A stretch of DNA of 32,194 nucleotides, from assembly GCA_002245135.1 (NCBI GenBank), contig NGBS01001246.1, positions 1 through 32,194 of the forward strand. The letters are read 5' to 3'. Shown here one piece after another: positions 3,487-31,049 of the stretch; within the stretch, counting starts at the first letter, position 1, and every line of letters starts with the position of its first letter. This DNA comes from Proteromonas lacertae. Lineage: Eukaryota. The notes below the pieces were generated by a model. The model ran no database searches, had not been told where the DNA came from, and worked only from the letters and a program-made list of their open reading frames with translations. Position numbers and translations under genes: made by a program.

Positions 3487-4319
3487 ACTATAACAATATT
3501 ATATACTATATTTGTTCATCATTTAAACATACTCATATTTCAGCACCTATATATACTATAACTATATTATATACTATATTTGCTCATCATTTAAATATGC
3601 TCATATTTCATCACCTATATATACTATAACTATATTATATACTATATTTGTTCATCATTTAAACATGCTCATATTTCATCACCTATATATACTATAACTA
3701 TATTATATACTATATTTGCTCATCATTTAAATATGCTCATATTTCATCACCTATATATACTATAACTATATTATATACTATATTTGTTCATCATTTAAAT
3801 ATGCTCATATTTCATCACCTATATATACTATAACTATATTATATACTATATTTGTTCATCATTTAAACATGCTCATATTTCATCACCTATATATACTATA
3901 ACTATATTATATACTATATTTGTTCATCATTTAAACATGCTCATATTTCATCACCTATATATACTATAACTATATTATATACTATATTTGCTCATCATTT
4001 AAATATGCTCATATTTCATCACCTATATATACTATAACTATATTATATACTATATTTGTTCATCATTTAAACATGCTCATATTTCATCACCTATATATAC
4101 TATAACTATATTATATACTATATTTGTTCATCATTTAAATCATGCTCATATTTCATCACCTATATATACTATAACTATATTATATACTATATTTGTTCAT
4201 CATTTAAATATGCTCATATTTCATATATATACTATAACTATATTATATACTATATTTGTTCATCATTTAAATATGCTCATATTTCATCACCTATATATAC
4301 TATAACTATATTATATACT
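3487..4319. repeat. 68-bp tandem repeat, ~12 copies
   Basis: Unit ACTATATTTGTTCATCATTTAAACATGCTCATATTTCATCACCTATATATACTATAACTATATTATAT recurs at 3505, 3573, 3641, 3709 and onward with few variants and no spacers. Confidence 0.97.
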
Positions 4320-4321
4320 TT

Positions 4322-4450
4322 AATAGAATTATACCAATCACAGCTCCATTATTGAAATCTCATATTGCTGATATTGATTATAAGTTAAAACCTGGTATGG
4401 TAACATTGACATGGACATCAATGAATATAGATGCATATAAACATCATGTG
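4322..4450 (+). pseudogene. Fragment of axonemal outer-arm dynein heavy chain (DNAH5/8-like, N-terminal stem region)
   Basis: Translates NRIIPITAPLLKSHIADIDYKLKPGMVTLTWTSMNIDAYKHH; PG..TLTWTSMNIDAY is a conserved dynein heavy-chain stem motif. Confidence 0.75.
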
Positions 4451-5292: not shown

Positions 5293-8200
5293 ATGTATTT
5301 TAGTCTTTTATTAGACTGTCTAGATATAAAACCAACAACAATTATTAGTAATAAAATTTTATCATTAGATGTAAATAGTTTAGTTATACAAGTAATTAAA
5401 TATGTGAAGCAAAAGAAAAATATACCGTTGGTTGTTATACAAGAATCTACAAATATTATTGACATTGTAAATATACTATTCACAGGATGTTTTATTAAAT
5501 ACAAAAAAGAGATCTACTCAAGCAAAGATGTTATAAGAAGAATTGAGGAGTTATTTGGTGTAGATAATGAAATTTTAATACTTTTTGCAGTTAAATATGG
5601 AAATTCTTCAAAATTTGAAGAAATGAAACATTTACAGTATGTTAATATTAATAATGTACTAAAAATATACAAGGATGTGTTTAACATTACAGATTATTTA
5701 CAATTCAAACAAAAAATAATAAAGAGAAAATCAAGTAGTAAGAATACAGAAAAACGGAAAAAAAGAAAATTGGTAAATAACATTAATGATAATACTGCAA
5801 ATAATATGAATGAAAATAATGGAAGTAGTAATCCAGTTGAAGATGAAATGGATGAAGGTAGTGAATTGAATGGAAATAGTAATCCAGTTGAAGATGAAAT
5901 GGATGAAGGTAGTGAATTGAATGGAAATAGTAATCCAGTTGAAGATGAAATGGATGAAGGTAGTGAATTGAATGGAAATAGTAATCCAGTTGAAGATGAA
6001 ATGGATGAAGGTAGTGAATTGAATGGAAATAGTAATCCAGTTGAAGATGAAATGGATGAAGGTAGTGAATTGAATGGAAATAGTAATCCAGTTGAAGATG
6101 AAATGGATGAAGGTAGTGAATTGAATGGAAATAGTAATCCAGTTGAAGATGAAATGGATGAAGGTAGTGAATTGAATGGAAATAGTAATCCAGTTGAAGA
6201 TGAAATGGATGAAGGTAGTGAATTGAATGGAAATAGTAATCCAGTTGAAGATGAAATGGATGAAGGTAGTGAAAGTGCAATAAATGACGATAAATGTGAA
6301 GGTGAAGAAGATATCGAAGATGATTCAATAAATAATGATAATAGTGAAGGTGAAGAAGATATCGAAGATGATTCAATAAATAATGATAACAGTGAAGGTG
6401 AAGAAGATAACGAAGATGATTCAATAAATAACGATAATAGCGAAGATGAATATGGTAGCTATGGTAATGGTGAAGAAAATGATATTAATCGAGATAGAGA
6501 TGATTTAATGATATATTTACTGCAGTTTTTTCTCGAGAATGGCATATCAGAATTCAAAGTTAGTAAATTCTTAAAAAAGATTAATACTATAAATACAATT
6601 AAAAATTTAAAGATCAAAACATCACTCAAATCAATAAAAGAATTTGTAAAAATAAAAATCAAATTTAAAGAAAGAAAAAAGAAATATTATATTGGTATTG
6701 AAGAATCTTTAAAAAATATATTATGTAATACTAACATAAAATTAATTAACAATAATTGTAAAGATAAATATAAGTCGATTGAAAGTTCTGAAAATTATAT
6801 TAAATTAAAGGATAATGATCAAAACACAGATTTTATCCATGTACCAATCCAAATCAGCTACGATGGCATACAATTATCTCCTTTTTCTTCCTCAAAAAAG
6901 TCAATTAATTTACTCAGTTATAAACTACTCAACTTAAAAAATAATATAAAACTTGTTGAAGTAATTGCAGCTGATGAAACTGAAGATGGTTTAAATGAAA
7001 ATAGAACAAATTTAATCCAAGAACTAAATAACTTATATTATAATGGATTCAAAATTGGTGATAGAAATTATAATGTCTATCCACTAAGCTATTGCTCAGA
7101 TAGTGTAGCTACAGTTAAATTTTTTAATCTTCACAATTTTATTAGCGCAAATCACTTTTGTCGTACTTGTGACGCTAAATGCACAACTAAATATGTAACT
7201 GTTAATAACAAGAAAAAGAAAGTAAGAGCACGTGAAGCAATGCGTGGTTACAATCAAAATAATTTCAATAAATACAAGAATAAATACGGATATTCAGTTA
7301 AAAAATTAATAAAGATATTTGATGATGGTAAATATAAAGATTTCTTATTAAAGACATATAAAAAAGAAAGTGATTTCTTAGATGTTAAAATATTCAGTAT
7401 TAGGTTTATAACATACGATACTATGCATAATCTTTTCAATGGATTATCCATTTTTTATGATGATATTATAAAGAAAGTTAATCAAATAGATGTTGTTAAT
7501 GAGATCAAATTTGTATATTGCAATAGCTCATCATTTTACAACAATATAGATTTATCTAATATAAATAAGTATAACATTATTCAAAAAATATATATATTAT
7601 TAAATATATTTCCATTAATTTTAATGAAATATATAAATTATGTGAAAAGAAATAGAAATATTATTACTGATTATAGTTATTACAATATCTGTAAATCACT
7701 TTTTAGTATAATTAATGTTATTAACAATTGTTTATATTACCAGTATAGCGACATGTCTACTACAGAAATGGAAAATGAATTAATTAACAAATTGATGATA
7801 TTAGAATTATTTTATTTATTTAAACCCTCCACTCATGACATTGTCCATCTTGTTTTATATTTAAAATGTTTAGGGCCTTTATCCCACAATGGAACTACAA
7901 TCTTCGAAAGATCTTACAAACAGTTAAGAAAAATAACATTATCTAACAAGAAAAAGCTTATTAGTGTAATAAACAGTATGGAATTAATAAACAGCTTAAA
8001 CATATATCTATATAAACAAACTGATAATAAATACAAATATCATATCAAAATAAATAATTCAAAAACAGTAGAGCAGTTATTTCACTCTTATACTAATATT
8101 AAAATATATAGTGTAGTATCATATTTTGATGAGGACGTAATGCGATTCGGAATAATAAGAAAAAAGAATAATAATATTTTATCAATAAACGAAATAATAG

Positions 8201-8361
8201 TTAATAGAATATCTACAAAAATTTATAAAATTTTAAATTTTAATAATAGTATCAATATAAACATAGATATAAACAAAACAATTATATTTAATAATTTATA
8301 CATACAAGATAATGAGTACTATATATTTACATCCGATTTAGTTGAATATGAAAAACTATAA
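5293..8361 (+). CDS. CACTA/EnSpm-type DDE transposase (1022 aa, intronless) with acidic repeat insert
   Basis: Ordered CMC signatures: ISYDG (D1), YCSDS (D2), FCRTC (CxxC), YDTMHNLFNG ([M/L]H), KPSTHDIVHL (H-x3-H), GPL...FERSYKQLR (E). Uninterrupted ORF. Confidence 0.88.
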   Translation: MYFSLLLDCLDIKPTTIISNKILSLDVNSLVIQVIKYVKQKKNIPLVVIQESTNIIDIVNILFTGCFIKYKKEIYSSKDVIRRIEELFGVDNEILILFAVKYGNSSKFEEMKHLQYVNINNVLKIYKDVFNITDYLQFKQKIIKRKSSSKNTEKRKKRKLVNNINDNTANNMNENNGSSNPVEDEMDEGSELNGNSNPVEDEMDEGSELNGNSNPVEDEMDEGSELNGNSNPVEDEMDEGSELNGNSNPVEDEMDEGSELNGNSNPVEDEMDEGSELNGNSNPVEDEMDEGSELNGNSNPVEDEMDEGSELNGNSNPVEDEMDEGSESAINDDKCEGEEDIEDDSINNDNSEGEEDIEDDSINNDNSEGEEDNEDDSINNDNSEDEYGSYGNGEENDINRDRDDLMIYLLQFFLENGISEFKVSKFLKKINTINTIKNLKIKTSLKSIKEFVKIKIKFKERKKKYYIGIEESLKNILCNTNIKLINNNCKDKYKSIESSENYIKLKDNDQNTDFIHVPIQISYDGIQLSPFSSSKKSINLLSYKLLNLKNNIKLVEVIAADETEDGLNENRTNLIQELNNLYYNGFKIGDRNYNVYPLSYCSDSVATVKFFNLHNFISANHFCRTCDAKCTTKYVTVNNKKKKVRAREAMRGYNQNNFNKYKNKYGYSVKKLIKIFDDGKYKDFLLKTYKKESDFLDVKIFSIRFITYDTMHNLFNGLSIFYDDIIKKVNQIDVVNEIKFVYCNSSSFYNNIDLSNINKYNIIQKIYILLNIFPLILMKYINYVKRNRNIITDYSYYNICKSLFSIINVINNCLYYQYSDMSTTEMENELINKLMILELFYLFKPSTHDIVHLVLYLKCLGPLSHNGTTIFERSYKQLRKITLSNKKKLISVINSMELINSLNIYLYKQTDNKYKYHIKINNSKTVEQLFHSYTNIKIYSVVSYFDEDVMRFGIIRKKNNNILSINEIIVNRISTKIYKILNFNNSININIDINKTIIFNNLYIQDNEYYIFTSDLVEYEKL
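5827..6273 (+). repeat. 51-bp coding tandem repeat (SNPVEDEMDEGSELNGN), ~9 copies
   Basis: Identical units from 5827 to 6235 at 51-bp spacing, in frame within the transposase. Confidence 0.97.
6298..6447 (+). repeat. 48-bp coding repeat (EGEEDIEDDSINNDNS), 3 copies
   Basis: Three near-identical 16-aa units directly after the 51-bp array. Confidence 0.9.
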
Positions 8362-8717
8362 TTAATTAATTTATGCATTATTATTGTTGTTGTTGTTGTT
8401 ATTAATACTAATTGATTAAAATACATTTTAAAATATAATCCATTTTAAAAAAATTATAAAAGTATAATACACAAAGTTAAAATCATTGTATATTCATTAT
8501 TCACATTTAAACATTTTAAATATCATTTATTTCTTCATTTTATCACATTTCATATCTAAAGATATTAATATCTAACAATGGAAATGCTCTACTTCCGTTA
8601 AGACCATGATTATTTTGAGATTCTAATGTGGATATATATATATACCATTTCTAAATGATGATTTCTTCTAAACGCCTCCATTTCGAAATACACAACTCTG
8701 CATAAATTTACGAGATA

Positions 8718-9177
8718 TTCCATTCAATTCACTACCTTCATCCATTTCATCTTCAACTGGATTACTATTTCCATTCAATTCACTACCTTCATCCATTTCA
8801 TCTTCAACTGGATTACTATTTCCATTCAATTCACTACCTTCATCCATTTCATCTTCAACTGGATTACTATTTCCATTCAATTCACTACCTTCATCCATTT
8901 CATCTTCAACTGGATTACTATTTCCATTCAATTCACTACCTTCATCCATTTCATCTTCAACTGGATTACTATTTCCATTCAATTCACTACCTTCATCCAT
9001 TTCATCTTCAACTGGATTACTATTTCCATTCAATTCACTACCTTCATCCATTTCATCTTCAACTGGATTACTATTTCCATTCAATTCACTACCTTCATCC
9101 ATTTCATCTTCAACTGGATTACTATTTCCATTCAATTCACTACCTTCATCCATTTCATCTTCAACTGGATTACTATT
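8718..9177 (-). repeat. Inverted copy of the 51-bp array, 9 copies
   Basis: Exact reverse complement of the 5827-6273 unit; it makes up most of ORF 8668..9186. Confidence 0.97.
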
Positions 9178-10217
9178 TATATTCATTTTATCTTATCATA
9201 TTAGGAACATCGTTAGTAGGATATACTAATTTTACTGCATTTGTGATATTTATTGATGATGCAACATTCTTTGGAATTGAAGTTCCCATTCTATACACAC
9301 ATTATTATAATCAGTTAAACATCTCTTTCTGAAGGTAATACTAACTACTCTTTATAGTTATTGTCTCATTGTAGCTCAAACTGAACGAATTGTTATATTT
9401 GATGCAAACAAAACACATGACTAATTCTGGAGCAACTGACAATATTATTTATCACAATTGAAAAAAAAATATACTATATAATATAAATTACATATTTCAT
9501 AAAATAATTGAAAGCATGACATTTACCATGTAAAGTTGCAAATTTTGACATTTTTTCATTTCTTTTTTCTTGATTTTCTATTAATTTTCTCCATTTCAAT
9601 AATTGCATTGGACTAATTATAATATAACTGTAAATGTACAGATGATACATACCTGTAAAATAAGATAATTTGTAGATTTAAAAATTAGCATTGTGAAATG
9701 TATTATTTATTATGAACTATAAATCAAAAAAGTATTATACTACTTATAATAGTTATTAATTATTCATATATTTATATGTTTCATATACTTAGAGTGAGAT
9801 GTTTCTATTGTAGATATTTGTGTTAGATATTCCATAGTTGTATATAACTTGGTGTATTAGTTATGCACGTATATTATTGATAAACAGAAACAAAAATTGC
9901 ATATAATTGGAAATGTTTCTTCATATTGTCAATATTTTTTATATTTTATGCATTAATGCAATTTATTATGCCTTAATCTCTATTTTAATATGATTATTAG
10001 TTATTTTTGAAGTAAATTTAAAAATCACAAATATTAGTTTTTCTTTTTTTTAAGCCTGTTCAAAAGTAGAATAGTTTCTTAATACACTGTGAAAATTTTT
10101 CATTCCAATTCATTCTTTAACATAATGAAAAATTGAAAAGAAAAAGTGTTAAAAAGAGAAAATCGCAAACAAGATCTGATCCTTGAATACTATCCCTATT
10201 TGCAAAATAGATTTTAG

Positions 10218-10772: not shown

Positions 10773-12048
10773 ATGAGTGTTATACTTGAGACTAGTCTTG
10801 GTACTTTGACAGTGGACCTTTATTACAAGGAATGTCCAATGGCAGCAGAAAATTTTCTAAAATTATGTAAAATTAAATATTATAATGGTCATTTATTCTA
10901 TAATGTTCAAGCTAATTATATAGCTCAGACAGGTGATCCAACAGGAAGTGGAAATGGCGGATCTTCAATCTATGGATTATTGGATGGAGGTGAATCAAAG
11001 TATTTTAATGACGAAATAGTAAAATTTCTTACTCATTCAAGAATGGGAACAGTAGGTATGGCATCAGCAGGTCCAAATTGTAATGGAAGTCAATTCTATA
11101 TAACATTAAGAAATAAAATCGATTATTTAGATGGTAATCACACAATATTTGGCCAAATAATAGATGAAAATATAGATATACTAGATAAATTCAACCATCT
11201 CCATATAGATGAAGATGGAAGACCACTTATTGATATAAGGATATTACACACAATTGTTATTGAAGATCCATTTAAAGATGATGATAAATTGAAAGAATTA
11301 ATTCCTCCATCATCACCAACTTATTTAAAACCAAAAACAGAGATTGTTCCATCAAGATTGACATTAGAAGAAGCAAATAATAACGATGAGTATATAAATA
11401 ATTTATAATTTTATATTTTTATAATTTAAATCTTATAGTAATATATCACAAGAAGAACTGCAAAAACGAATAAAAAAACAAGAAAGTAAAACAGCAGCAG
11501 TAATATTAGAAGTAGTTGGTGATATCCCAGATGCAGAAATGAAACCTCCAGATAATGTACTATTCGTATGTAAATTAAATCCAGTTACTGAAGATAAAGA
11601 TCTAGAGTTGATATTTAGTAGATTTGGTGATATTAAAAGTTGTGAAATTATTCGTGATCACAAAACAGGAGATAGTTTGCAATATGCATTTATAGAGTTT
11701 GAGAATGCCAAACAGTGTCAAGATGCATATTTTAAGATGGATAACACACTAATCGATGATAGAAGAATACATGTCGATTTTAGTCAGTCAGTTGGTAAAT
11801 TGTGGAATAAATATAAGAAAAATCCTAACAATCTTACTAAAGGAGATGCTACTTTAGATGCAAGGAGTAATATTGGTAAAGTTAATAACAATAAACAGAA
11901 GGATAAAGAATCTGATGTGAAGAGGAAGAAGAATGAAAGTAGAAGTAGAAGCAGAAGCAGTCATAAACGTAAGAGAAGTGAAAGTAGATCTAAATCAAGT
12001 CATCATCATCATAAACACAGCCATCATCATCATAAACATTCTAATTGA
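10773..12048 (+). CDS. PPIL4: Cyclophilin-RRM protein (PPIL4/CYP59), 2 exons
   Basis: Cyclophilin domain ([28 protein letters not shown]). GT-AG intron 11390-11438 joins in frame to [24 protein letters not shown]...[11 protein letters not shown] (RRM) and an RS/His-rich tail. Confidence 0.95.
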
Positions 12049-12160
12049 TTATATTTATTTATTTAATTATCGTTATTACTGATTTATTTAAACTACATTC
12101 ACAAGTCATAGTATTTTTATATAAATATATGATTAACATACACTCATCTGATATCAACAT

Positions 12161-13025
12161 TATAATTCTATATGTATTACTAAGAAATGCTTACATAAAA
12201 CATAAATTAAAATAATAACTAAACAACTCAAATTACTTTTGAATATTATAATTCATCTTATCAACTATACGCTTTTCTTCTATTTTCTTCTTTTTCTTCT
12301 ATCATTAAGTATTCTGTTTGGTTTTTTATAATTATAGGTATATGGATGCTCAAGATTTAATTGAAATAATTAACGAAGAAGCTACTATTAAAACTAATAG
12401 AACAGGTATAGAATATGTAGAAGATCCTTATTTTATTCAAAGACGGAGTTATTTAAATATTTACAACGAAATGATGAAATATATAGCAATAGAAAATGGA
12501 ATCCAAAAGAATTTTGTTGTATATGGAAACTATGGTATAGGTAAAACAAATTTTTGTGCATTTTTATGCAAGCAATTTAAATCTTCCAAATTCCAAGTTA
12601 TATTTATACCCTCTTCAGATTTATATCTTTGTAAAGGAGTAGAAGAAAACAAATATAATCCTATTTCATACTTACCTCCACGAGATGTTAAAAATCCTTC
12701 TCAAAAATCTATAATCATCTGCGATAATATACCAATTTCAGAAGATGAATACAGTGAGGATGATGTGGTTATATTAGTGAGTGATATGAAGCTGAAAAAA
12801 TATAAAGTAATGCGTAGCAAGAGAGCTCCAATTCAGTTCTGTTTATTGCCTTTTAATAAGAATGAAATTGATTTTTATAAGAAAGTAAGAAGAAGAGAGA
12901 TTGAAAAATATGGAGGAATTCCTGGATTAGTTCTTGTGAATGTTGAGAAAGAAATTAATGAGTGTCAAAAGATAGATATTTATAGTGGTATTCCTGCTGA
13001 ATATAATGAATATGTAAATATTTAT
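12161..13025 (+). repeat. ~860-bp inverted duplication, left copy
   Basis: Highly similar to the reverse complement of ~29869-30728, including upstream non-coding DNA. Confidence 0.9.
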
Positions 13026-13061
13026 TACATAGATGTAAATATAAACATAATAAAGAAATAG
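12342..13061 (+). CDS. P-loop NTPase domain of a Crinkler/RHS-like protein, 3'-truncated copy
   Basis: YFIQRRSY, Walker A VYGNYGIGKT, IIICD and KYGGIPG. The paralogue near 30540 continues towards an REase-like domain; this copy does not. Confidence 0.6.
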   Translation: MDAQDLIEIINEEATIKTNRTGIEYVEDPYFIQRRSYLNIYNEMMKYIAIENGIQKNFVVYGNYGIGKTNFCAFLCKQFKSSKFQVIFIPSSDLYLCKGVEENKYNPISYLPPRDVKNPSQKSIIICDNIPISEDEYSEDDVVILVSDMKLKKYKVMRSKRAPIQFCLLPFNKNEIDFYKKVRRREIEKYGGIPGLVLVNVEKEINECQKIDIYSGIPAEYNEYVNIYYIDVNINIIKK

Positions 13062-13112
13062 ATTTAGAAATTATATCATTTATCATCTTGTATTTTATAA
13101 TAACTTATATGT

Positions 13113-13830
13113 TTATATTTCTTTTTTATTCCTTTTATTCCTTTTATTCCTTCTAATAAAACTACAAATATCATTCTGTTTTATTTTTTCTATATCTTCA
13201 AATGTAAATAATTTAATTCTTAAACCAGATTGTATATCTTTCGAATATTGTATAAAATATTGTTTATATTTATTACGCTTTTCTGTTACAAAATCATTTT
13301 TGTTAACATCTTCTATTTTCTTTACATAATATAATGGAAATACAACAACATTATTAATAACATAACATATATCATAACCTATTGATGTTGTAGTGTTTTT
13401 GAAATATTTATTAAATATATTTATCTGAATATTATTAAACTTAATCACATCACTATTCCATTTTGCATTATACATAATTGAATAACACACTATTTCATTG
13501 AATAATAGTTTATATAGAGGATGATTTTTATCTGATTGTATTTTATTCTTGAAAAAATCCTTTATAATTTCAAATTCTCTTTTACTACATCTGTGACTTG
13601 TACAGAAATATAGATATTTAAATACTTCATCAGATATATATTCTAATTGAACTTTATCAATTGAATCATAATCTAATACTTTGTATTTTACAATATAATG
13701 TGACATATCTGTATCTAATCTATCAACATTTAATTCAACATCATTTTCCAAATTCGATTCTTTACCTCTTTCACATGGAAAGAGATATTTCTTTATAAAA
13801 TTAAAATATCCAAGAGTATTCACAGTTGTT
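13113..13830 (-). pseudogene. 5'-truncated paralogue of the 25840-26550 segment
   Basis: Near-identical peptide and DNA to part of ORF 26095..27033 (NTLGYF..IKKYL...YFCTSHRCSKREFE). Starts abruptly and carries small deletions. Confidence 0.75.
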
Positions 13831-14244
13831 TCTTCATCTAATAAAAAGAAAGAAATAATGTTATATATATCTAATAAAAATGATGTATATGAAGTATTAT
13901 TGAAATATGTTAAAGTAGATGAATAAGTATTAATTCCAGATAGTGAAAATAAAAATAATAATAGTTATTTAGAAGTTTATTATAAATTAGAAGAACTATT
14001 TAGAAAACATATTAATAGTTGATTAAGTAAAGCAATATTACGTAAAATGAAGTTGAATGAGAATGATAGTTATAGCAATATGTATATAAAGAAAGGAATA
14101 GTTTATAATAAAGATTCTGATTTCGAAATGAATTCTGAGTTATATATTCAGTTTATCATCCTCCAAAAGCCAAAAATTTTGTTTGTTATATTTTGGATGA
14201 AAATAATTTCTTTGATTTGATAATAGATGGTGTATTTATAAAAG

Positions 14245-14936
14245 TACTTCTCCGAAATGCTGAACTAGCAAGGAGATCAACTAAGACTCTCAAGTCAACA
14301 TCTTCTCGTTTAGACAAAGCAATCATCGATCTGGCTAATAAGTATAAGGAGGTGATGAGCTTACCAAAGGAAACTTCCGAGGAGACTAGAAGTATTCTAC
14401 GTCAACTATTACGGGATGTTGCTAATATCGCTGAGAAGGACAACCCATCCTTTCAATTGATCCGAGAGCATGCTGCTAAAGCCGGTGTTGAGATTCCTGA
14501 CTTCAAAAGGAGTTCCGAATCTGATGGTAAGTCAGCTCCATCAAATCTTCATCAGGCAGTGGATTATATAAAGGGAAAGCTTCCAGTTGGAGAGAATGTC
14601 AAGGATATAATGAGGAGTCCACAAGTATGGGCAGCAGTAGTTAACTATCTTGGGCGAGGTAAAGGTGATTCCAAAGAGAAGGAAGAGGATGATGTTGGTT
14701 ATTATGCTAGACTATATGATCAATACCGTAAGGTGACTTTCAAAAGCCGTGAACGCAAGTCCTCCTCCGATGATGATGATGAGATTCCAATCCTTGAGGT
14801 TGATCCAGACTATGTGTCGGAGGACGATGCTGACGATGTTGAAGCTGATGATGAGTTTCCCTTTAATCATTCTCACGGTAAGATCAAGATGGTAAAGCCT
14901 TCTCCTTCTGAGTGGTACAAGTGCTTACAGTTGTAA
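14245..14936 (+). CDS. Viral hypothetical protein lacking its native 5' end
   Basis: The GC-rich frame begins mid-ORF; the predicted TTG start at 14193 lies in AT-rich host-like DNA. Acidic C-terminal part. Confidence 0.55.
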
Positions 14937-14971
14937 TCCTTAACTTCTTCAGTCTATCTATCTCTCCTAGT

Positions 14972-15499
14972 ATGTTTGGGACTTTTAAGCAACAGCACCT
15001 CCATCAACAAGAACTCTTTGAAGCCTTATCAGCGATCCGTGATCACTTCAAGAGAAGTCCTGGCAATCAGCATGTCATTGATAATCACTACCTCCGAGAC
15101 TTTAAGAAGAGAAGATATCTCCGACACTCCATCACGAACTACAACAGTGCCGATCAAGGAGATGTCTACGATTCCATGAATAACCTAGTTAATGAGATCA
15201 AGGAACTGCTCCAAGAGAATCCACCGTCAGTACGTACAATCGACATCCCCGAGTATGATGAACTGATGAAACGATCCTCCGATGATGACTTAACCTACTT
15301 GCTCCTGGATCAACTGATAAGGCTCCTTGTCTTGAGTGGTGGATCTAACTCCTCAGGCATCTTCAAGATAAATAAGCTAAAGCAACACCACCTAAGGAAC
15401 ATACAATGTATAATTAAGATAATCAAGGTAAGGAAGTTCTACGTGTCGAAGGAGTTACAGTCTCTTTATAAAGTAGTTCTTCGATCTCACGCTTACTAA
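14972..15499 (+). CDS. Viral hypothetical protein (175 aa from ATG 14972)
   Basis: Open frame with the island's codon style; converges on the ATPase gene. Confidence 0.55.
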   Translation: MFGTFKQQHLHQQELFEALSAIRDHFKRSPGNQHVIDNHYLRDFKKRRYLRHSITNYNSADQGDVYDSMNNLVNEIKELLQENPPSVRTIDIPEYDELMKRSSDDDLTYLLLDQLIRLLVLSGGSNSSGIFKINKLKQHHLRNIQCIIKIIKVRKFYVSKELQSLYKVVLRSHAY

Positions 15500-15553: not shown

Positions 15554-16468
15554 CTAGTCCACAAAGAGTTGCTTATCGAAGTTGATCCTATACTGAGCCT
15601 TGTGCATATCATTGTATAGGAAGCTATAAGGAGTATGCTCCGTGGCCATATGATAGAACTCCTTGAAGAGTCTAAAGGGAGTTGCCAAGGCAAGGGACTT
15701 ATGTAGTTATTGAAGGTTGCTGCATGATATGTTCTTGAAGGCTAAGCAATAGTCCAGCTGAAGTCTTTGACCAGGAGTAAGGTCTGTAATGTACTGACTA
15801 CTGATAATCACCTTTGCCTTGTAATGCCTGTTCTGCTTAAGGAAGGTGATTAGCTGGGGATCTTTCAGGTCATTGCTAACATCATCGAATCCAAAGATGT
15901 TCTCAGCGCAGGTGCTATTCTCTTTATCGGGAGGTGGTAGATCGTGAAGTACTTCCTCCAGGTTGTTGGTCTTGTCTTCCTCGTTCACGATAGAGTCAAA
16001 CGTGTAGTAGTCGATCTTGTTGTACTCCAACATCTCCATGATCTTATCGTAGAGCACATCCTTATAGATCGTACCAACAAAGAAGTAGACCCTTTGATTC
16101 TTACCCTTGATCAGTATATGTTGAAGGACATTGTAGATGACTGTTGTCTTACCAGAGTTCTTCTTTGCTAGGAGGAAGATGTTACAGAAGGGTTCATCGA
16201 AGTAGTCATAGCCGACAACATCCTTCCCGTGACTGGAGGTCTTGATTTTCAAAGGCTTTACTTCTGCCTGGTTGATCTTCTCATACTCTATCTTTAAATG
16301 GCCCTTGGATGATCTCGGTAACTTCTCTGGTAAGTAAGCATCACCATGTACTTCATCATCCCCATCCTCATCCTTGAACTGATCATCTCCTGATCCTTTC
16401 AGTCTTCGCATCTTACTGAGATGAAGATCTCCAAAGGGTTGCTTTCTCTTGTTAACCATAAGCATCAT
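15554..16468 (-). pseudogene. A32/FtsK-HerA-type genome packaging ATPase with one in-frame stop
   Basis: Walker A AKKNSGKT, Walker B-like IFGFDD, and NRHYKAKVIISSQY...LTPGQRLQLDY. After TAA at 15707 the frame continues LHKSL...FKEFYHMATEHTPYSFLYND...RINFD to TAG at 15554. Confidence 0.92.
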
Positions 16469-16513: not shown

Positions 16514-17863
16514 TTATGCTATACTACGAATGACCGAGGTAGTAATCTCAGCTCTTCGTCCAGTGATCAAGTAGAATCGGTGATTCACAGACTTGTGTTC
16601 TAGCTCTGAGTTGTAGATCTCAACGGTGATCTTTAAATCTCCATATAGTCTTCTCCAAGCAATGGTCTTGACATTACTAAGGTTGTCACTACCGAAGTTG
16701 AGCACCTCAAAGAACTTCTCGGTAAAGGGCTTCTTGTTGAGTTGATCATACCAGCTTCCTCCAATGTACTTCTTAAGCAACTCGTAGCTATCGTAAGTCT
16801 CCATGTTCTGATAGTTGGGATTGTAGTTGAAGTCGTTGATCATCCACTTGAATCTTGCTTTGGAGTCTAAGAGAAGGATATGGTTCTTCATTGTATATGC
16901 CTGATAGACGATGGCTTTAATATAAGGACCAATAGAGCTGTTGATTGTAAAGGAGTAGTTGAAAACGCCGGTGCTGGTGATGGTGATGCTCTTATCGTGA
17001 TAGCCATTAAAGGGAATGGGCTTCTCAATGCAGGAGATGATAGACTTCTTGTTGCTGTTGAAGTCCTTATTGTATAAGGTTCTGATGCAAATGTCCTTGA
17101 TGTCACACTTTGCCTGAAGAGTAACATCCTCCTTGCTATATTCATACTTATCATCGTCGGTATCGAACTTCGCATCAGTAGCTGTACTCAATCTTCCGAA
17201 GTTGGTGATCTCTCCTCATTGGATGCTGAGAAGTAACTTCTCTCCCAAGAATAGATCAGTGGGATTTGCTAGGACAGTGTTATACATCTCATTGAAAGGA
17301 ATCTTTACAAGGAATTCCAAGTAGCCGTCTTTCACTTGAGTATCCCAGAAGGTGTTGTTTACCTTGGAGGTGCATCCATCATTTCCATTATCTACCGAGG
17401 TGAACTCCATACCAGGCTGGAGGATATCTCCATTCTTCTTTTGCCAGATACCATCGAAGTAAGTGTGTTGTCTATCGACGTGAGTTGTCTTCCTTTGAAC
17501 TTGTTGCATAAGCCCTCTGTATTGTTCATAAGTGTCAGTTACATAAAGCAAGTTGATTCCCGCAGCAGTGTGTACTCTAAAGGAGGAGATGTTGAAGGTG
17601 TTGTATAGGAGGATCTTCTCAGCCTTCTTGTTATTGTCAGAATCCTTATATCCGATGATTAGACGATACTCTAAGTAACTCTTGCTAAGGTTAATGCAAT
17701 TGTCGGTAGCTATCTCGAACATGACCTCTGCGGTTGATCCAGAAGTACCAGCATTGACCGAGGTGTTGCTCTGGGTAGGGTTGACTTTCACGTGTACGTA
17801 AAGTGAATCATAACTCTCGGAGTAAGCTCCTTGTTGAACACTTGCTGGGATGAATGTTGTCAT
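16514..17863 (-). pseudogene. Probable double jelly-roll major capsid protein (449 codons) with one in-frame TGA
   Basis: ORFs 17216..17863 and 16514..17191 are in the same frame (LSIQ*GEITNFGR). Beta-rich sequence; N-terminal VMFEI...INLSKSYLEY pattern typical of Polinton/PLV capsids. Located between protease and ATPase. Confidence 0.7.
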
Positions 17864-17914: not shown

Positions 17915-19804
17915 CTAGATTAAGTTAAAGGTTCTCTTGAGTAGTGCCATTTGCTTCTCGCCCTAGATAGAGTTGAAGTTAGTTGCCTCCTTGAAGGACA
18001 GGTTCCTTCCGAGGATATTGAATAGGAAGTAGATTGCAAAGTAACCACAAGTATCGGTGTTGACCTTCTGGTTCTTGATTCGATTGATCTTGAGTTGGTA
18101 CTTATCCTCAAGATTACCTTTAAGGTGTTGTATCTGCTAGATGAACCACGAGTAGTTCTTAGGGTTCTCTCCGAAGCTATCATAGTAGTAGATTTGCCTT
18201 CGATTATCATCCACGACTAAGGCAACCCAATGCCCGATCGTATTCTCAGCACTTGTTGTTGTAAGGGTACTGAGAATATATCCCCATCTATTTGTTCCTA
18301 AGACTCGAAGGTCTTGCTTAAGTTGATCCCATAAGAAGACTCCAGCGAATTGTCCATTGAAGTCACTGTACTCTTCCTTGATCAGCCTCTCGATATCGAA
18401 GTTGCTTAAGGCATCATCATGGCTAGCAACTTTACCTTCAGCAAAGTACTCATACTTATCCTCATGCTCCTTATCATCATCATCATCGATGATATCCGAG
18501 AGTGGCATCTCCAACATCGAGTTGATTTTCAGCTGTCTAAATAAAGGGTCTGTATCTGCATACACTACAGGTTGTTGTACTTGCTCTTGTCTACTAGGTA
18601 ATAGGGTTGGACTTTGAACTGCTGGCTGGGCAATTGGTATTGAAGGAACATAGGAGTTCACCTGGTCCTCCATTATCGAATAGCTGCCTCCTTGAACTTT
18701 ACCTAGACCTTTGAAGCCATTGAAGAGATTACCGATGATTCCTCCCATACCATTACCTAGTCCTCCTCCTCCATTGAGTTGATTGATCGCGTTAACCATT
18801 GCATCGTTAAGTGTTGTATCGGGACCTTTGTACTGAGTCTCTAACCATCGGAAGAAGTCATCGTTAGGAGTGTTGTTGTACTCAGCATTAAGTTTATCAG
18901 CTGCCTTATCAATCAACTGAACTACTGGGTGGTTCTCATCATATCCAGCGGCCTTAGCAAAAGACTTAAACTGTTCCTTGTTGCCTTGAACGAACTTAAG
19001 AAACTCTCCAGCTAGTGTCTGATGATCTGATTGAAACAACCTTCCTATACCTGGGATGGAACGTAGGAGACTTCCTACGATTGGGATCTGTCCTATTCTA
19101 CTTCCGAAGGTTGAGATTAATCCAACCATTCCAAGGATGGCTCCGATGGCACCTCCTATCTTCATTCCACGGTCTGTTATTCCTGACTGATTCTGGGTAA
19201 GTGAGTTACTAGTATTCCCAAAGGTGTTGATCATCCTGGAGACATCTTGTTGTTGCTTCAATAAGGAGTAAATATCATTATTACTAGTTGTGTTATCATA
19301 TAAGGGAAGAGTTCCACGGCTAATTGTTGTCCTTGAGTTGTTGACATTGTAAGGGGTCATGATGGAGCTCTGATAGTCCACATACTTCTGGTAATCATCA
19401 GCAAAGTAAGTTGCTGAAGGATGCACATTGAGCTTCTTACGTTCCTCCTCGGCAAGCAGCTTTCTAAGGTCAGGGTTTTTCACGAGGAAATGATCGTTGT
19501 AGGACTTGCTAGCAAGGTACTTCTCCTGGAGTTCACCGCTCTCCTCGATGTTGTTCTCCAAGGGATTGCTCTTAACGATTGATAAGGAATTACCTTCTCT
19601 GTCTTGAGTATCATCAGTGTTGTTGTTAGGAGCTATCTCTGATAGCAAGGTAGTTAAGTAGTGTAAGTCATCAGTGTTGTTTATCTTGACCTGGAACTCC
19701 TTCTTAAGCTTCTGCTGTAGTGCCTTCACAACTCTTGAAGTAAGCTTCTTCTTCCTTGAGTTGATTCCTTTGTCTTTATCGTTTACCATCGATATCTTTA
19801 CCAT
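17915..19804 (-). pseudogene. Adenain/Ulp1-clan (CE) maturation protease with a long N-terminal extension; two in-frame TAGs
   Basis: GHWVAL (His) and YYYDSFG (Asp); past TAG 18137 come NQKVNTDTCGYF (oxyanion Gln, catalytic Cys). Second TAG at 17963, final stop at 17915. Confidence 0.88.
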
Positions 19805-21277: not shown

Positions 21278-22344
21278 TTATCGTATATTGTATCTCTTGA
21301 TGAGCTTGCGGTTCCTTGTTATACCAGCATCTTCATTTACCTTGAGGAGTTCATTTGACTTATAGCACTTATCGGAGATGTCCTTGACCGAATTCATGTT
21401 AGCATCTCCGAGGATGAAGGAGTAGGTGTTCTTTGCGATGATCCGATAGATGACGTCGGAGTAGAATAAGGCCTTCTCTATCTTGCTTACTCGACGTTCC
21501 TTAACTCTTACGAAGTCCCCAATATTGAACTGTTCCATGGCAGTGTTCCTTTGGTTACACATCTCGGCGTGATTGTAGAAGTACTGCTGGACATCTTCGT
21601 CGTAGAAAACTTCATTGGGAGTGAACCAGGATAAGGATGCCTTCGGTTTATTGTTGTACTGATCAACGACTTCATCAATAACTAGATTGAATTGTCTTAC
21701 GCTCAGAGCTCCTCGGGAGTGGAAGTCAACATCAGCTATTCTCTTGTAAAGCAATCTCTTGACCTCAGAGACTGAATGATCAAGGATGCTCATTACATGA
21801 TGCTCATCTACGTCCTTAACGATGTACAGGATCTGGTGTTGTATAAGATCGTTGATACATTGCGGCTATGCTCATCCCTTAAAGGTTCCTTCTCATGTCC
21901 TTGATAGAAGAACCTTTGCCATGCCTCAATCACTGAGTTATAAGTCTTATCAGGCATCCAGTAACAAAACACCTTCCTGCTAGGTACGTGAACTAGATAA
22001 AGCCATCCGTACTTGTGACTATTCTTTGGTTAGAAGATGACTATGTCCATTTGATAGCTGTCAGGAACTGGAATGATTTTTAAGGGCTTTATCCTGGTGT
22101 TGACGTAGACTACCTGATTGCCCGGTTGTCTGTAGTAGAACTCCTTTACCTATTCTGCCGAGATTGATTTATCGTAGTGATGTACTTGCCTTATGAACTG
22201 ATTAAGAGATAGGAATGGTAAGGTGTTGTAAGTCCTTTGAAGTAGATCCTCAGGAGATGAGAAGGTCGGAGGTTGATAGAACGTAGACTTCACGTATGGC
22301 TTTATCGGGATCTCCTTACTTGTGTTATTGATGGTTGCTTCCAT
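21278..22344 (-). pseudogene. Polinton-type retroviral-like (rve) integrase, disrupted
   Basis: Reading through TAG 22150 and TAA 22030 gives SYQMDIV and LVHVPSRKVFCY..PDKT. After a frameshift near 21850: HHVMSILD..., YNNKPKASL..TPNEV and FNIGDFVRV...YSDVIYRI, typical of Polinton integrase C-termini. Confidence 0.85.
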
Positions 22345-22400
22345 GGGATCATTGACAATCAGGTTACCTTCTTCTTCATCATTGGGAAAGACTTTACTAC

Positions 22401-22874
22401 TTAGAGACGATAGACAATGACTTTGTTGGTGCTTCTACTGGTCCTTGATTTACCACCTTTACTTCTCTTGGCCTTATGAAGTTTTACTTTACCTAGTCCA
22501 TTGGTTTTGAGAACATCACTTATCATCGGTCCAGCTACAGGAATGTACTTGCTTACCGTGGATAGCACCTTGCTTTTCTTAAAGAAGTTACCTATGTCCT
22601 GGAAGAATCCCTTGCCTTTGACTTTTGACTTCTTCGATTGTTGGTTCTCAAGGAAGCTGCTATAAAGGGTTGGAGTATAATAACAATAAGCAGGAGCCGG
22701 GTTGTACTTTCTCTTGGTTGCTTTATCGGAGCTAGCAAAGGGTAATGGCTCCAATGGATCCTCGTAATAACATTGATCGGTAAGATCATCCACGGAGGTC
22801 AATCTGGATCTACTATCAAGACTATCCTCGTTGGAGTATTGATGAGTGTTGGGATTGTAGGTATGGATAGGCAT
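22401..22874 (-). CDS. Putative virion core or membrane-lytic precursor (157 aa)
   Basis: VKGK/G protease-type site followed by amphipathic GFFQDIGNFFKKSKVLSTVSKYIPVAGPMISDVL and a basic tail. Confidence 0.6.
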   Translation of the reverse strand: MPIHTYNPNTHQYSNEDSLDSRSRLTSVDDLTDQCYYEDPLEPLPFASSDKATKRKYNPAPAYCYYTPTLYSSFLENQQSKKSKVKGKGFFQDIGNFFKKSKVLSTVSKYIPVAGPMISDVLKTNGLGKVKLHKAKRSKGGKSRTSRSTNKVIVYRL

Positions 22875-23116
22875 CTTACTTTGACCTTGGAATTAACAAA
22901 CTGGAATGCCATTCTTGGGAGCTTCTTAAACGTAGAAACCCCGTAGTTTCTACGGTCTATCAGTCTCATTTTTCCCTGACAATTGTTGAGCATTGGAACA
23001 CTTTACCTAGGTGAATTATAAGGCCATTGTAACTTACCTCTAGGAAGCTCCCGAGAATGCTTATCATTATCTTCAAGGGCCCTTGAGAAATCCACAACTA
23101 GCTAGAACCTCCCGGA

Positions 23117-23169
23117 GTTACCATTTGGTAACTTGTTACCATTTGGTAACTTGTTAACAATTGTAAACT
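23117..23169. repeat. Three tandem ~18-bp palindromic units (GTTACCA-TT-TGGTAAC)
   Basis: Two exact copies (23117, 23135) and one degenerate copy (23153), flanked by CTCCCGG on both sides. Confidence 0.85.
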
Positions 23170-23287
23170 CCCGGTTCCACGATTGGTTTCCAAGGTTCAA
23201 TTAAAAGCCCTTACAAGGTCATCAGCGTAGCAAGGAGACTCTAGATCATAATTAGATTCATCACCTCGAGGTAACCAACGCTTCTAG

Positions 23288-23462
23288 ATAGCTTCCAGGA
23301 GTCCCGGTAGGGAAGAAGACTACGTAGGCAATAGACCCCGTTAGGAGGAATCACGTAGTTAGTTTACGTAAGTGGGAATATGGTACAAGTGTCATAGTTC
23401 AAACGAGTGTTCTAGGAGTCCGTCCCCTTCTAGATTCAAAGTCTCATTTATATACTATATAC
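23288..23462 (+). repeat. Degenerate direct copy of the terminal region 24029-24165
   Basis: Shared blocks ATAGCTT.CAGGAGTCCCG, TAGACCCCGTTAGGAGGA, TATGGTACA and GTCCGTCCC.TTCTAGATTCAAAGT. Confidence 0.85.
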
Positions 23463-23676: not shown

Positions 23677-24006
23677 ATGCAATCCATTGTCATATGTAGT
23701 CGATGTAAGAAGGAGTTCCAATCTGAAGCTGATGGATGAACCTAACTCTATTGTAGTTCATTTAGAGCTCTCTTACGAACGGCAAAGCAGAAGACAATAA
23801 CCCGATGCCATGAGGAATGTAAAGCCTTGGAAGAGAACGCTGAACTCATAATCAAGACTATGTACTGCAGTAGATGCCATAACTACTATCGATGTTGTCC
23901 AAGATGTAGATCTAGGAAACCTACTGAGAATCAACAACCAGGCATGTTAACACAACACAGTATACATGAGATTCTCTTAGGAAGTATTCTGAAGATCGTC
24001 TCATAG
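23677..24006 (+). pseudogene. Small Cys-rich (Zn-ribbon-like) viral ORF with two in-frame stops
   Basis: MQSIVICSRCKKEF...G*T*LYCSS...YCSRCHNYYRCCPRCR...; stops at 23737 and 23743, no frameshift. Confidence 0.6.
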
Positions 24007-24091
24007 ATTGGTATAGGTATGTATAGAAATAGCTTACAGGAGTCCCGTAGGAAGTAGACCCCGTTAGGAGGATTCCCGTAAGCACCTTACT

Positions 24092-24292
24092 TAAATGGGA
24101 CTATGGTACATTGTCACAGAGTTCTAACGAGTTTTCTAGGGTCCGTCCCTTTCTAGATTCAAAGTTGACCTTTACGAGGCCTTCATCAATGCAATCGATG
24201 AAGGCCTCGTAAAGGTCAACTCTGAATCTAGAAAGGGACGGACCCTAGAAAACTCGCTAGGACTCTGTGACATTGTACCAGAGTCCCATTTA
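24092..24292. repeat. 201-nt terminal palindrome (96-bp arms, 9-nt loop, 5 mismatches)
   Basis: 24092-24187 pairs with 24197-24292; loop AATGCAATC. Coincides with the right GC boundary. Confidence 0.97.
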
Positions 24293-24426
24293 TATACTAT
24301 ATATATTGAGAATGATAACAAAACAAATGAAAAGATGAAAGAATCAATAAAAGTATTAAAATATATTTTATATTTATATGTAATTAAATAGAAATAGAGC
24401 AAAGAGAAAAGTGATGAGTTTATGTA

Positions 24427-25300
24427 TTGTATGATACAAAACAGGATATAAATACAATAGTTTTATCATCAATGAAAGCGTATATGCAAGATAATAAAGT
24501 GTATTTGGTGAGAGATTGTTATTATAAGATGTTGAATGTAATTTTCCTTCAAGATATAGATTTTGAAAAAGTTAGTCAAAGAAATTATTTGATATTTGAT
24601 CATAGTAAAATGGGAAAATCAACGTTTGCTATTCATAATATCTATCCTGATGTTAGTATATTGCATGAAATTAAACAAGACAATAAAACAATCGAAAAAT
24701 AGATTATTACAATAAGAGGAAAAAATGATATTATGAAGATGTAAAAATGATAATGTTATTAGCTAATCCATCTAAAGAAGAGTATAATACTTTTCAAAGT
24801 AAAAGATGTCCTTCAATACTGTATATACCTCAATTTACAAAAGAAGAAGTTATGAAGAGCGGAAGAAATTATATGAAGAAAAATATCCATTATATAAAGG
24901 TATTATAGGATATTATGATAATGAGAAAATGACTGAAAGTGATATAAATGCTTCAATAATTAATGAAAATAATAAGGCGATGATAGAAGAAATATTAAAA
25001 GGAATAGATAAATCTTAATTTTCAAAAGTTGAATATGATAATATATTTATTTATGATACATATGAAGATGAAAATGGTATTTTTAAATCCAATCGTATTA
25101 TATTTATATCTGAAGAAATGAAAAAAATGGTATGTGATACACTATTTGAAATAGATCGTTATTAATTTCAAACATCAGCATCAATTAATAAGGATTCTCT
25201 ATATGGCTTATTTTATATAGCTCCAAATAAAGAAGTAAGTATAAGATTAAAAGGCAAAGATAATTACAAAATGTTTTAAATATGAAGAGTTAAATTACTA
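24427..25300 (+). pseudogene. Degenerate Crinkler/RHS-like P-loop NTPase gene
   Basis: YLVRDCYY..., decayed Walker A YLIFDHSKMGKSTF, then LYKGIIG; multiple stops and frameshifts. Confidence 0.5.
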
Positions 25301-25839
25301 TTTTAACTTTCTACATGAATTATTGTTTTTTATTAAATACTAAATCGAATATTTCTGTATAACAGTAATTACTATAAAACAGAATTAGCAGCTTAACAAA
25401 TACAAAAACAACATTAAGTAAAGGTTTGAATCAGAAAGTGATAAAAACTTTAGATGGTACAGTTTGTGAGGGTTTTGAAAATGAAGTTAAATTGTGAGTT
25501 AAATATGAAAAAGTAGTAATACAGATAGGTAAAACAGTACAGTATTACAGCAGCAGATATAAGAAACAGTTCTAGGTGTTATTAAATTGGACAAAACAGG
25601 ATATTACTTTGCCCTAACTGTAAAAAGTGGAACTAAAATTCCAACTATCCAACTAATTAAAGAGAAAGGAATAAAAGTATTTATTGCTATAAATGAGAAA
25701 TCAGCTATATTTATATTAAATTTAGAAACAATGCATGGTGATGGTAAGTTGTATTGCCTATAATAATATTTATTATACAGTTTACTGGTTAATTACTAAA
25801 TTGTATAAGTAATTATCATATCATAGGTTAATATATCTT

Positions 25840-27454
25840 AACATTATTTATGCAAATCATTAACTACATTCTTATCAAGTTTATGTAAATCTTCAATTGT
25901 AAATATTTTAGGATATAAACTACATTGAATATCTTTTGAATAATCTTCTAAATATTGTTTAAATTTTTCATTTTTCATTATTTTATCTACATCATAATAA
26001 AATGGAAATACAATAACATTATTAATAACATAACATATATCATAATCTATATCAATATCAAATTGACCAATATAATAATTACCTTCTCCACATCCTATTG
26101 ATGTTGTAGTATTTTGAAATTATCCTTTAATATATTCATCTGAATATTATTAAACTTTATCACATTATTTTTCCATTTTGCATTATACATAATTGAATAC
26201 CACACTAATTCATTGAATAATAGTTTATATAGAGGATGGTTGTTTTTAGATATCATTTCATTTAAGAAAAACTGTTTTATATTTTCAAATTCTCTTTTAC
26301 TACATCTGTGACTTGTACAGAAATAAACATACTTAAATACTTCTTTAGAGATAAATTCTAATTGAACTTTATCAATTGATTCATAATCTAATACTTTGTA
26401 TTTTACAATATAATGTGATAAATGTGAATCTAATCTATCAACATTTAATCCAATATCATTTTCCAAATTTGATATTCTATATTCTGCATCACATGGATAT
26501 AGATATTTCTTTATAAAACCAAAATAACCAAGAGTATTCACAGTTGTTTTAATACAGTTTGTATAAATTTCATCCCAATAACTTGTTCTATTCGGGTTTA
26601 TTGTTGCTATATAATATGTTTTATATATTGCTGCAAAATATAAATGTCTTGGTACTCGATTGTATAAAGAAATAAGATTATCATCAATTGCATTTCCTAA
26701 ATCTTCAGGTAAACAATTTTCTTTCCATATATTTATCTCTTTTTCATTACAAATATCCAAATAGAAATATACTTTATTACCACCCTTAAAATCTTTTATA
26801 TTTTTATAGTTTTTATTATCTGGAGAACTGATATTTACAATTATACTACTTCTTCTATATATATTCTCATGAATATCATATGAATCACATATAATTATAT
26901 CTTCATCCATTATATTTTCTTCTAAATATTTTCCAATCAAATTATAGATAACAGGATTATCTGGACTTCCATCTTCTTTCTTTGAACTTTTGTAATATGT
27001 TAAACCTAAATTAATACCTAATTTTTCTTTCAATTGAATAAATTTTAAGATAAAATAGACAATAAATGTGGATTTTCCACATCCTGGTTGACCTCTCAGT
27101 AAATAGTAACTATTAATTTCATCTTCATCAGTTTCATATTTGATTAGTTTTTTTTAATCTTTCTTTCTCTCTTTCAACGATTTTATGTAAATCATCTTCA
27201 TTAATTGAAGGATCAACATTTACATTTATATATTTAAATAACTTCTTTAAAACAAATTCATTTTTTCTATAACGATAAAAACAATTATAAATTATATTAT
27301 ATTCTATTCTTTTCCAAAATAGTGGATAATAATCTCTCACCAATATTTTATGACTTGGATATTGAAATAATTTTATACTTTCATCAATTTTTATCAATAA
27401 TTCATTAAATGTAAAACTGGGAGATTTTTTACCTATATCAAATATACGTTTCAC
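25840..27454 (-). pseudogene. Crinkler/RHS-like P-loop NTPase gene, frameshifted
   Basis: ILVRDYYP in ORF 27134..27454. Walker A YLLRGQPGCGKSTF at ~27060-27105 lies between ORFs. Then IIICD, VNISSPD..NYK and YNRVPR, typical of CR-NTPases. Confidence 0.65.
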
Positions 27455-29343: not shown

Positions 29344-30545
29344 TTAATATACTCCTAAATAATAAAGAGTTTCAGCAAGTTCATCTATTCTTTTCTCCTC
29401 AAACATTCCTAATACGATTTCTCTTCTCTTTTCATATGTTTCTTGAAAGATCACATTGAATAAAATAGCTACAGATTCTTTAATAGGATGATGGTCAGAT
29501 ACTGTTACTTGTATTCCATTTATACACTTTTCATTAATCTCTATTGCATCAACACTTTCAAAATTAGATTGAAATGAACAATCAATCAACAATGGTAAAG
29601 CTTTTTCATTTAATTTGTCTAATTCTAATTTGTTATTAATTGTGTTTTCTTTATATTTAGATCCTTTATAATACAATACCAAATGTTCATAATAATAACC
29701 TCCTTCGCCTCCTATTCTGTCATTATCTCCTTCGATTTTCTTTGTTAATAAAAAATAATATTTTTTGAAATTATTATCATCTATAATAACTTCTTTAATG
29801 CCAAATCTTCAATATACTTTGAAATAAATTTCAAATTCTGAGGAATTTCATACTCATTTTTAACATCATAAATATATACATATTCATTATATTCAGCAGG
29901 AATACCATTATAAATATCTATCTTTTGACACTCATTAATTCTTTCTCAACATTCACAAGAACTAATCCAGGAATTCCTCCATATTTTTCAATCTCTCTTC
30001 TTCTTACTTTCTTATAAAAATCAATTTCATTCTTATTAAAAGGCAATAAACAGAACTGAATTGGAGCTCTCTTGCTACGCATTACTTTATATTTTTCAAG
30101 TTCATATCACTCACTAATATAACCACATCATCCTCACTGTATTCATCTTCTGAAATTGGCATATTATTGCAGATGATTATAGATTTTCAGAAGGATTTTT
30201 AACATCTCGTGGAAGGTAAGTATGAAATACGATTATATTTGTTTTCTTCTACTCCTTTACAAAGATATAAATCTGAAGAGGGTATAAATATAACTTGGAA
30301 TCGGAAGATTTAAATTGCTTTGCATAAAAATGCACAAAATTTGTTTTACCTATACCATAGTTTCCATATACAACAAAATTCTTTTGGATTCCATTTTCTA
30401 TTGCTATATATTTCATCATTTCGTTGTAAATATTTAAATAACTCTGTCTTTGAATAAAAAAGGCTCTTCTACATATTTATCCCTGTTTATCAGTTTTAAT
30501 AGTATTCACAGTTAATTATTTCAATTAAATTTGATCATCCATTTA
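29344..30545 (-). pseudogene. Crinkler/RHS-like NTPase + restriction-endonuclease-fold gene, frameshifted
   Basis: The 5' part is an inverted copy of the 12342 NTPase with indels. The 3' part reads SNFESVDAI...GIQVTVSDHHPIK, the D...QxT motif of CR-REase domains. Confidence 0.7.
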
Positions 30546-30728
30546 CCTATAATTATAAAAACCAAATAGAATATTTAATGATAGAAGAAAAGAAGAAAAT
30601 AGAAGAAAAAGCGTATAGTTGATAAGATGAATTATAATATTTAAAAGTAATTTAGTTGTTTAGTTATTATTTTAATTTATGTTTATATACGCATTTAAAA
30701 GTAATACATATATTAGAAGAATAATTAT
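29869..30728 (-). repeat. ~860-bp inverted duplication, right copy
   Basis: Reverse-complement match to ~12161-13025. Confidence 0.9.
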
Positions 30729-31049
30729 ATTCTATTAGTTTTTGTTAATCAAATTTTATGAGACAAAATCGTTCCTGGCGAAATCATTTTCTATAACCAT
30801 CTGCATAGCTCTAATGAATAGTGGTTTAATTATGTGATATATTAAATATGTTAATTAGGTTAATTATAAATGCTGTACAAGGTGTAAATAAAGAAAAAAA
30901 CCAGTTATGCTGAAAAAGGCTAGTGTAATTTCCTTTCTATAAATTAGGTTTTGGATTAATGAAAACACAATAAGAATGAGAAAGAAATATTAATTACTTT
31001 TAATTAACATAATTCTTTACTATACAATAATAATAAATACATCTATAAA

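Follow-up and report, generated by a model that had tools for sequence, protein, structure and literature searches.

The window considered here is a stretch of 32,194 nucleotides of Proteromonas lacertae contig NGBS01001246.1, and it contains an island of approximately 10 kb with a GC content of 41% inside host DNA of 22% GC. The left compositional change point lies at 14243 (range 14237-14267), and the right one at 24287 (95% range 24245-24294). Judged by its genes, the island is a decayed Polinton-like virus (PLV) encoding a capsid and an integrase, as the first-pass annotation had proposed, a call supported by matches for the capsid, an A32 ATPase, a protease, and, weakly, an rve-type integrase. 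The virus is flanked by host P-loop NTPase genes and pseudogenes (12121-13964, 24306-27150, and 29868-30759), present in direct and inverted copies that are 93% and 77% alike; the right flank is a degenerate member of this cluster, putatively of the CRN/RHS type.

Relatives of the element were collected via ATPase alignment and comprise 69 metagenomic loci and 4 genome loci. All are distant, with 28-46% identity over the best full-length segments, and one (L073) is probably unrelated. A scan of 20 proteins from 8 of these loci identified pPolB (L030), a D5 primase-helicase (L035), PIF1 and HNH proteins (L002), a tyrosine recombinase (L066), and rve integrases (L016, L030, and L035). The relative contigs are mostly fragments, and none has a defined genome end.

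At the left edge of the element (14243-15499, + strand) are two unassigned ORFs, the first of which is open from the junction; it has no usable Atlas match, and the 37 codons ahead of its first ATG have a codon-usage score of just +3.2. The genes that follow lie on the minus strand. The A32-type packaging ATPase (15554-16468) carries one in-frame stop and has 59 homologues, the best at 60% identity and many with PF04665; in viral_contigs, none of 9 and none of 70 candidate stretches was confirmed as an ATPase. The gene for the major capsid protein (MCP; 16514-17863), which is broken by one or more in-frame stops, matches Preplasmiviricota and Capsid_N clusters of the Atlas at 0.94-0.96, with recognition under the threshold of the tool, and a profile of 12 relatives at an E-value of 1e-9. 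The capsid model of the relative L035 resembles the capsids of PBCV-1, iridovirus, and Sputnik, the fold thus being that of L035 and not of the broken gene in the window. A comparison of the N-terminal half of the MCP with 972 longer proteins gave no match.

Next is a long protein (17963-19804) with one in-frame stop and a C-terminal Ulp1/adenain-type protease (Peptidase_C48, E-value 8e-7). The rve-type integrase (21278-22368) is broken by two in-frame stops and a frame change, and its matches are weak, both to Pfam rve (E-value 0.002, under the gathering score) and to a profile of three relatives (E-value 0.0014). A small basic ORF (22401-22874), a candidate core-protein gene, weakly matches the gene beside the ATPase in the relative L024 (E-value 1e-4). 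On the plus strand, a small Cys-rich reading frame with two in-frame stops and no family match of weight (23677-24006) lies between the two copies of the end described below. In-frame stops thus affect the ATPase, MCP, protease, and integrase alike, with seven in the element overall. They mix TAA, TAG, and TGA, so they point to gene decay and an alternative genetic code can be ruled out.

In its double jelly-roll (DJR) capsid, A32 ATPase, Ulp1-type protease, rve-type integrase, and GC contrast with the host, the element resembles PLVs and Polintons/Mavericks as described in the accessible text of three papers (PMC11161782, PMC12220804, and PMC3014272). It differs from them in size, and in that a terminal inverted repeat (TIR) pair, a 5-6-bp target duplication, a replicase, and a minor capsid gene were not found. 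PLVs span 14-40 kb, and their TIRs reach hundreds of bases, according to the portion of PMC12220804 available; with only ~10 kb present, we infer that the left portion of the element has been lost. The left edge has neither an inverted copy of the right end nor a non-coding end. Across five candidate right ends, direct or inverted matches that might mark a target duplication or a TIR did not exceed 4 bp. A terminus convention of 5'-AG...CT-3' may apply to such elements; a candidate terminus of this form at 14243/24298 was rejected, being a mere 4-bp inverted match with no duplication.

A profile of the presumed minor capsid genes of 11 relatives gave a best E-value of 0.096 in the search for this gene, which may have been in the lost part; some PLVs have no obvious minor capsid gene, as reported in the accessible part of a preprint (bioRxiv 10.64898/2026.07.28.741278). 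Six replication and recombinase proteins of the relatives, pPolB included, had no match in the window. It therefore holds for the window that no pPolB is visible, as was noted at first, yet this absence is uninformative because the element is incomplete. The deduction of hairpin replication from it fails, given that only part of the virus survives with no replicase of any kind, and that the relative L030 does bear pPolB. In addition, most PLVs have no pPolB, and Tlr1-type helicases retain a terminal-protein domain (PMC11161782, in the text available), so that lack of the canonical enzyme does not imply hairpin priming.

The right-hand 1.4 kb of the element is mostly non-coding and contains a palindrome of 201 nt (24092-24292). 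Recomputation exactly reproduced the geometry given in the first-pass annotation: two ungapped arms of 96 bp (24092-24187 and 24197-24292), a loop of 9 nt (24188-24196), and five mismatched pairs (24103/24281, 24111/24273, 24123/24261, 24127/24257, and 24162/24222). The symmetry breaks off directly beyond both arm ends. When folded as DNA, the region 24030-24330 reaches -112 kcal/mol (z = -23.5), a value equalled by none of 100 shuffles, and the longest perfect stem is 25 bp, where 20 shuffled versions of the element gave 7-10 bp. An ungapped scan of the window detected no second palindrome with arms of at least 18 bp. The palindrome starts and finishes with TA and adjoins a TA-rich tract.

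A smaller hairpin with an 8-bp stem and an 11-nt loop is nested in the outer part of each arm (24260-24286 in the right arm). All 8 stem pairs form in the right arm, whereas the left arm and the internal copy described below each form 6 of the 8; a comparable nested stem is present in 4 of 202 96-nt pieces of the element. Four Rfam matches, all to microRNA models and all under the gathering score, were read as generic hairpin matches, and a structured RNA was rejected. A sigma-70 promoter scan remained at chance level, the model not being apt for a eukaryotic virus.

Elsewhere in the end region, a second, smaller hairpin (23106-23174) is built of 18-nt palindromic tandem units and folds better than all of 200 shuffles (z = -3.7). 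There is also a 25-nt inverted repeat with 84% identity between 22910-22934 and 23035-23059. The end region has no match among phage records and short matches only among the loci of the relatives, and a search of viral_contigs for an exact 21-nt pattern returned 0 matches.

The palindrome had been placed exactly at the virus-host boundary. It does lie near the right edge, but the 11 bases past the right arm (24293-24303) recur unchanged after the matching point in an internal copy of the end, and the hairpin is thus subterminal, 11-27 nt inside the end. The chance of such an identity is ~1e-5 under Markov models of the host, and the 11 bases have two exact occurrences in 32,220 host bases. A weaker match continues to 24319; an equal score is reached by 816 of 20,000 host 22-mers (p ~0.04). 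The element-derived tail (24293-24319, + strand) is therefore firm up to 24303 and weak thereafter, and on these matches the true right end of the element is within 24293-24319.

Both this tail and the internal copy itself had been passed over in the first-pass annotation. The copy (23285-23461, + strand), which sequence alignment identifies as an older and diverged version of the terminal unit, contains in collinear order the 66 bases that precede the palindrome, then 74 left-arm bases, the outermost bases of the right arm, and the 11-base tail. The upstream part of the terminal unit (24026-24091, + strand) differs from it by 13 substitutions in 66 columns and one 18-nt indel. Deleting 24166-24284, that is, 119 nt between two AGT triplets, converts the terminal unit into the layout of the internal copy, which looks like the same hairpin collapsed through such a deletion. 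All that is left at its edges is a short and imperfect inverted repeat, and it folds no better than shuffled sequences (z = 0.14).

The terminal unit and the internal copy differ at 22 of 139 aligned bases, whereas decay after insertion would give ~4-6 differences per 139 (scaled from 2-3 per 74 bases). The duplication of the end therefore predates insertion, and the inverted repeat, for its outer 11 bp at least, arose in the viral lineage.

The five mismatches between the arms can be set against the decay of the genes. Seven stops in 8,235 coding bases, in segments picked after the stops were seen, correspond to a decay of 1.4-2.1% and to 2.7-3.9 expected arm mismatches, with a probability of 0.13-0.36 for five or more; the observed number thus fits nearly perfect arms at the death of the element. 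A narrower count of three stops in 6,846 bases predicts 1.4-2.1 mismatches and fits more poorly (P 0.015-0.06).

At four of the five sites the internal copy carries the left-arm base, and the four bases peculiar to the right arm are all G/C where the left arm and the internal copy have A/T. This direction of change has a probability of 0.004-0.009, calculated post hoc and on an assumption of equilibrium, and the few changes in host tandem arrays show no such bias. Two of the four bases complete the nested 8-bp stem, an outcome that random decay would not favour. The numbers are small, but they hint at something other than plain host decay behind the mismatches. The arms differ at 5 of 96 positions, vs 9 of 73 between the left arm and the internal copy; on this comparison, the idea that the similarity of the arms was maintained during drift of the internal copy does not reach significance (Fisher p = 0.16).

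Our best explanation, which we hold with about as much doubt as belief, is that the palindrome is the virus's own hairpin end structure, located 11-27 bases inside its right end. We infer a cycle of snap-back, tail trimming, and leftward extension by a replicase since lost. The element would be released from the chromosome and then unwound, whereupon the 3' end of the plus strand would snap back so that 24292 pairs with 24092. The short tail left unpaired would be trimmed, or used as the integrase end, and a polymerase would extend the primed 3' end towards the left of the genome. The present copy would have lost its replicase gene and the matching left end, and the internal copy would go back to an earlier duplication of the end, its hairpin core having been deleted between short repeats. 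Of the self-priming or rolling hairpin suggested in the first-pass annotation, a virus-borne hairpin is thus retained as the best reading, whereas the support drawn from the missing pPolB falls away. Several points count against it. There is a single copy, with its left end missing, so that symmetry of the two ends is presumed. The conserved tail, being unpaired, would have to come off before a hairpin could prime. The narrower decay count and the non-significant arm comparison above, and the intergenic palindromes of two relatives below, also weigh on this side.

Parvoviruses and poxviruses have long fold-back ends with mismatches, which could prime or resolve replication, and the long mismatched fold-back described here is like them. 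Unlike these viruses, the element integrates, and Pfam searches of the 15 ORFs in its surviving part found no match to Rep/HUH, resolvase, or protelomerase families. By analogy with parvoviruses, one could envisage a PLV lineage with imperfect, nested hairpin ends of ~200 nt kept in flip/flop forms, with the short tail as the integrase end and the collapsed internal copy as the fossil of an earlier end; we regard this fuller picture as speculative and rather unlikely.

The closest parallel comes from elements endogenous in Halocafeteria seosinensis. The accessible text of a preprint describes palindromes within TIRs, beside the target duplication, in every complete member of virophage subtypes 1, 2, 5, and 6 and of PLV subtype 4, and links them to non-pPolB replicases and rve integrases (bioRxiv 10.64898/2026.07.28.741278). 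It proposes hairpin priming as a model, with accidental annealing as the alternative. The life cycle is therefore not undescribed, as had been claimed, since both terminal palindromes and hairpin priming are already to be found there. As in those virophages and PLVs, the palindrome described here is found at the end of an element that is integrated and encodes a capsid and an rve-type integrase. It differs in being 201 nt long vs the 52 nt figured in the preprint, in its imperfect arms and nested hairpin, in its position 11-27 nt inside the end with an older collapsed copy 0.7 kb further in, and in being known from a single decayed copy in which the second end and the replicase are missing. 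In the open-access literature we found no other papers on palindromic PLV ends or on a collapsed internal copy.

Alternatively, a MITE-like fold-back insert with no role in replication may have landed in the non-coding end of the virus and later been duplicated with its flanks, after which one copy collapsed. We consider this unlikely, though relatives provide a precedent. An ungapped palindrome scan flagged 3 of 69 relative loci, two of them for simple AT runs, and gapped self-comparison of the 21 loci of at least 5 kb (of 73) detected dispersed large palindromes in two, L030 and L035, all intergenic. Those of L030 (5387-5796 and 10279-10688) are 410 bp each and 97% identical, and those of L035 (3969-4074, 4096-4302, 7078-7222, and 14353-14598) are 100-200 bp long and 69-85% alike. 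One palindrome of each locus occupies the same site behind the protease gene, the two sequences being unrelated. These repeats look like MITE-type parasites of PLVs, and since they are intergenic and L030 encodes pPolB, a large PLV palindrome need neither be an end nor exclude this polymerase. MULE insertions in PLVs, including those of Halocafeteria, have also been reported (bioRxiv 10.64898/2026.07.28.741278, in the part available).

Like such inserts, the window palindrome is non-coding, falls within 100-400 bp, is present in more than one copy per viral genome, and has TA at both tips beside a TA-rich tract. Unlike them, its copies are confined to the end and have their flanks in common, with no sign of independent insertion. 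It has no sequence in common with the repeats of L030 and L035, no copy in the window's host DNA, and no target duplication past the trivial TA. Furthermore, the 12-20% divergence between the copies predicts a similar divergence between the arms, which differ by 5%, a contrast that is not significant alone (p = 0.16).

Two observations on the relatives may be recorded here. The L035 palindrome behind the protease gene has, by eye, an apparent 7-bp duplication. In L045, a 46-nt imperfect palindrome (13680-13725) is found at the extreme end of the 13.7-kb contig and may represent either a palindromic tip or an effect of the assembly ending there.

A one-off template switch, in which fold-back synthesis expanded a short terminal inverted repeat into a long palindrome while this copy was being integrated, broken, or repaired, seems to us somewhat less probable again. 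It would explain why the internal copy has just a short edge inverted repeat, with no better folding than shuffles, and why this copy agrees with the left arm at four of the five sites, as if the right arm were the later copy; the element is also rearranged and sits amid a cluster of rearranged host pseudogenes. However, the 31 central bases, comprising the inner arm and the loop, are without a source in the rest of the element, and a template switch consequently takes more steps than a single deletion. The four changes of the right arm, all from A/T to G/C, also run counter to the host composition.

Lower still we rank a junction of two genome ends, from a circle or tandem, in which two 96-bp TIRs would meet head to head over a 9-nt spacer and the junction would have been integrated without the integrase. 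Each arm finishes towards the centre in CA plus two bases, which we take to resemble an unprocessed retroviral-type end; a CA in this place is expected by chance about once in 16. The lack of a target duplication and of a left TIR is consistent with non-canonical integration. On the other hand, two junctions 0.7 kb apart would be required, one of them collapsed, and the symmetry stops at 96 bp with just 11-27 viral bases beyond, where PLV TIRs measure hundreds of bases (PMC12220804, in its accessible text). The head-to-head junction raised in the first-pass annotation is accordingly possible but weaker than a hairpin end. An assembly or read artefact, such as a fold-back chimera, is very improbable given that the arms differ by five substitutions and no indel, matching the decay of the element, that unique sequence lies beyond both arms, and that the internal copy shows the right-arm end and the tail a second time.

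For the copying of the ends in PLVs that lack a protein-primed polymerase, the 2026 preprint, in the part accessible, puts forward hairpin priming and asks for a broader survey. If the palindrome is indeed a viral hairpin end, it extends such hairpins to a greater length and to another lineage, and its relic copy would suggest, from a single, decayed, one-ended element, that ends of this type are old and unstable. The researcher should also bear in mind that large palindromes in PLVs may be dispersed inserts, even in genomes that encode pPolB.

The host portions of the window have several further features. A gapped search reported a weak AT-rich palindrome at 25741-25844 (74% over 108 columns). 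To the left of the virus, a cyclophilin-RRM gene of the PPIL4/CYP59 type is present in two pieces (10773-12048); its best match is 57%, and plants and a Blastocystis species (56%) are matched alike. An ORF of 1022 amino acids with a 17-aa repeat, encoded by 51-bp units (5293-9191), has no Pfam match of weight, and its C-terminal motifs are suggestive of a cut-and-paste transposase. Its repeat array has an inverted 464-bp copy with 99% identity at 8728-9191, and a tandem array of ~12 units of 68 bp occupies 3480-4322.
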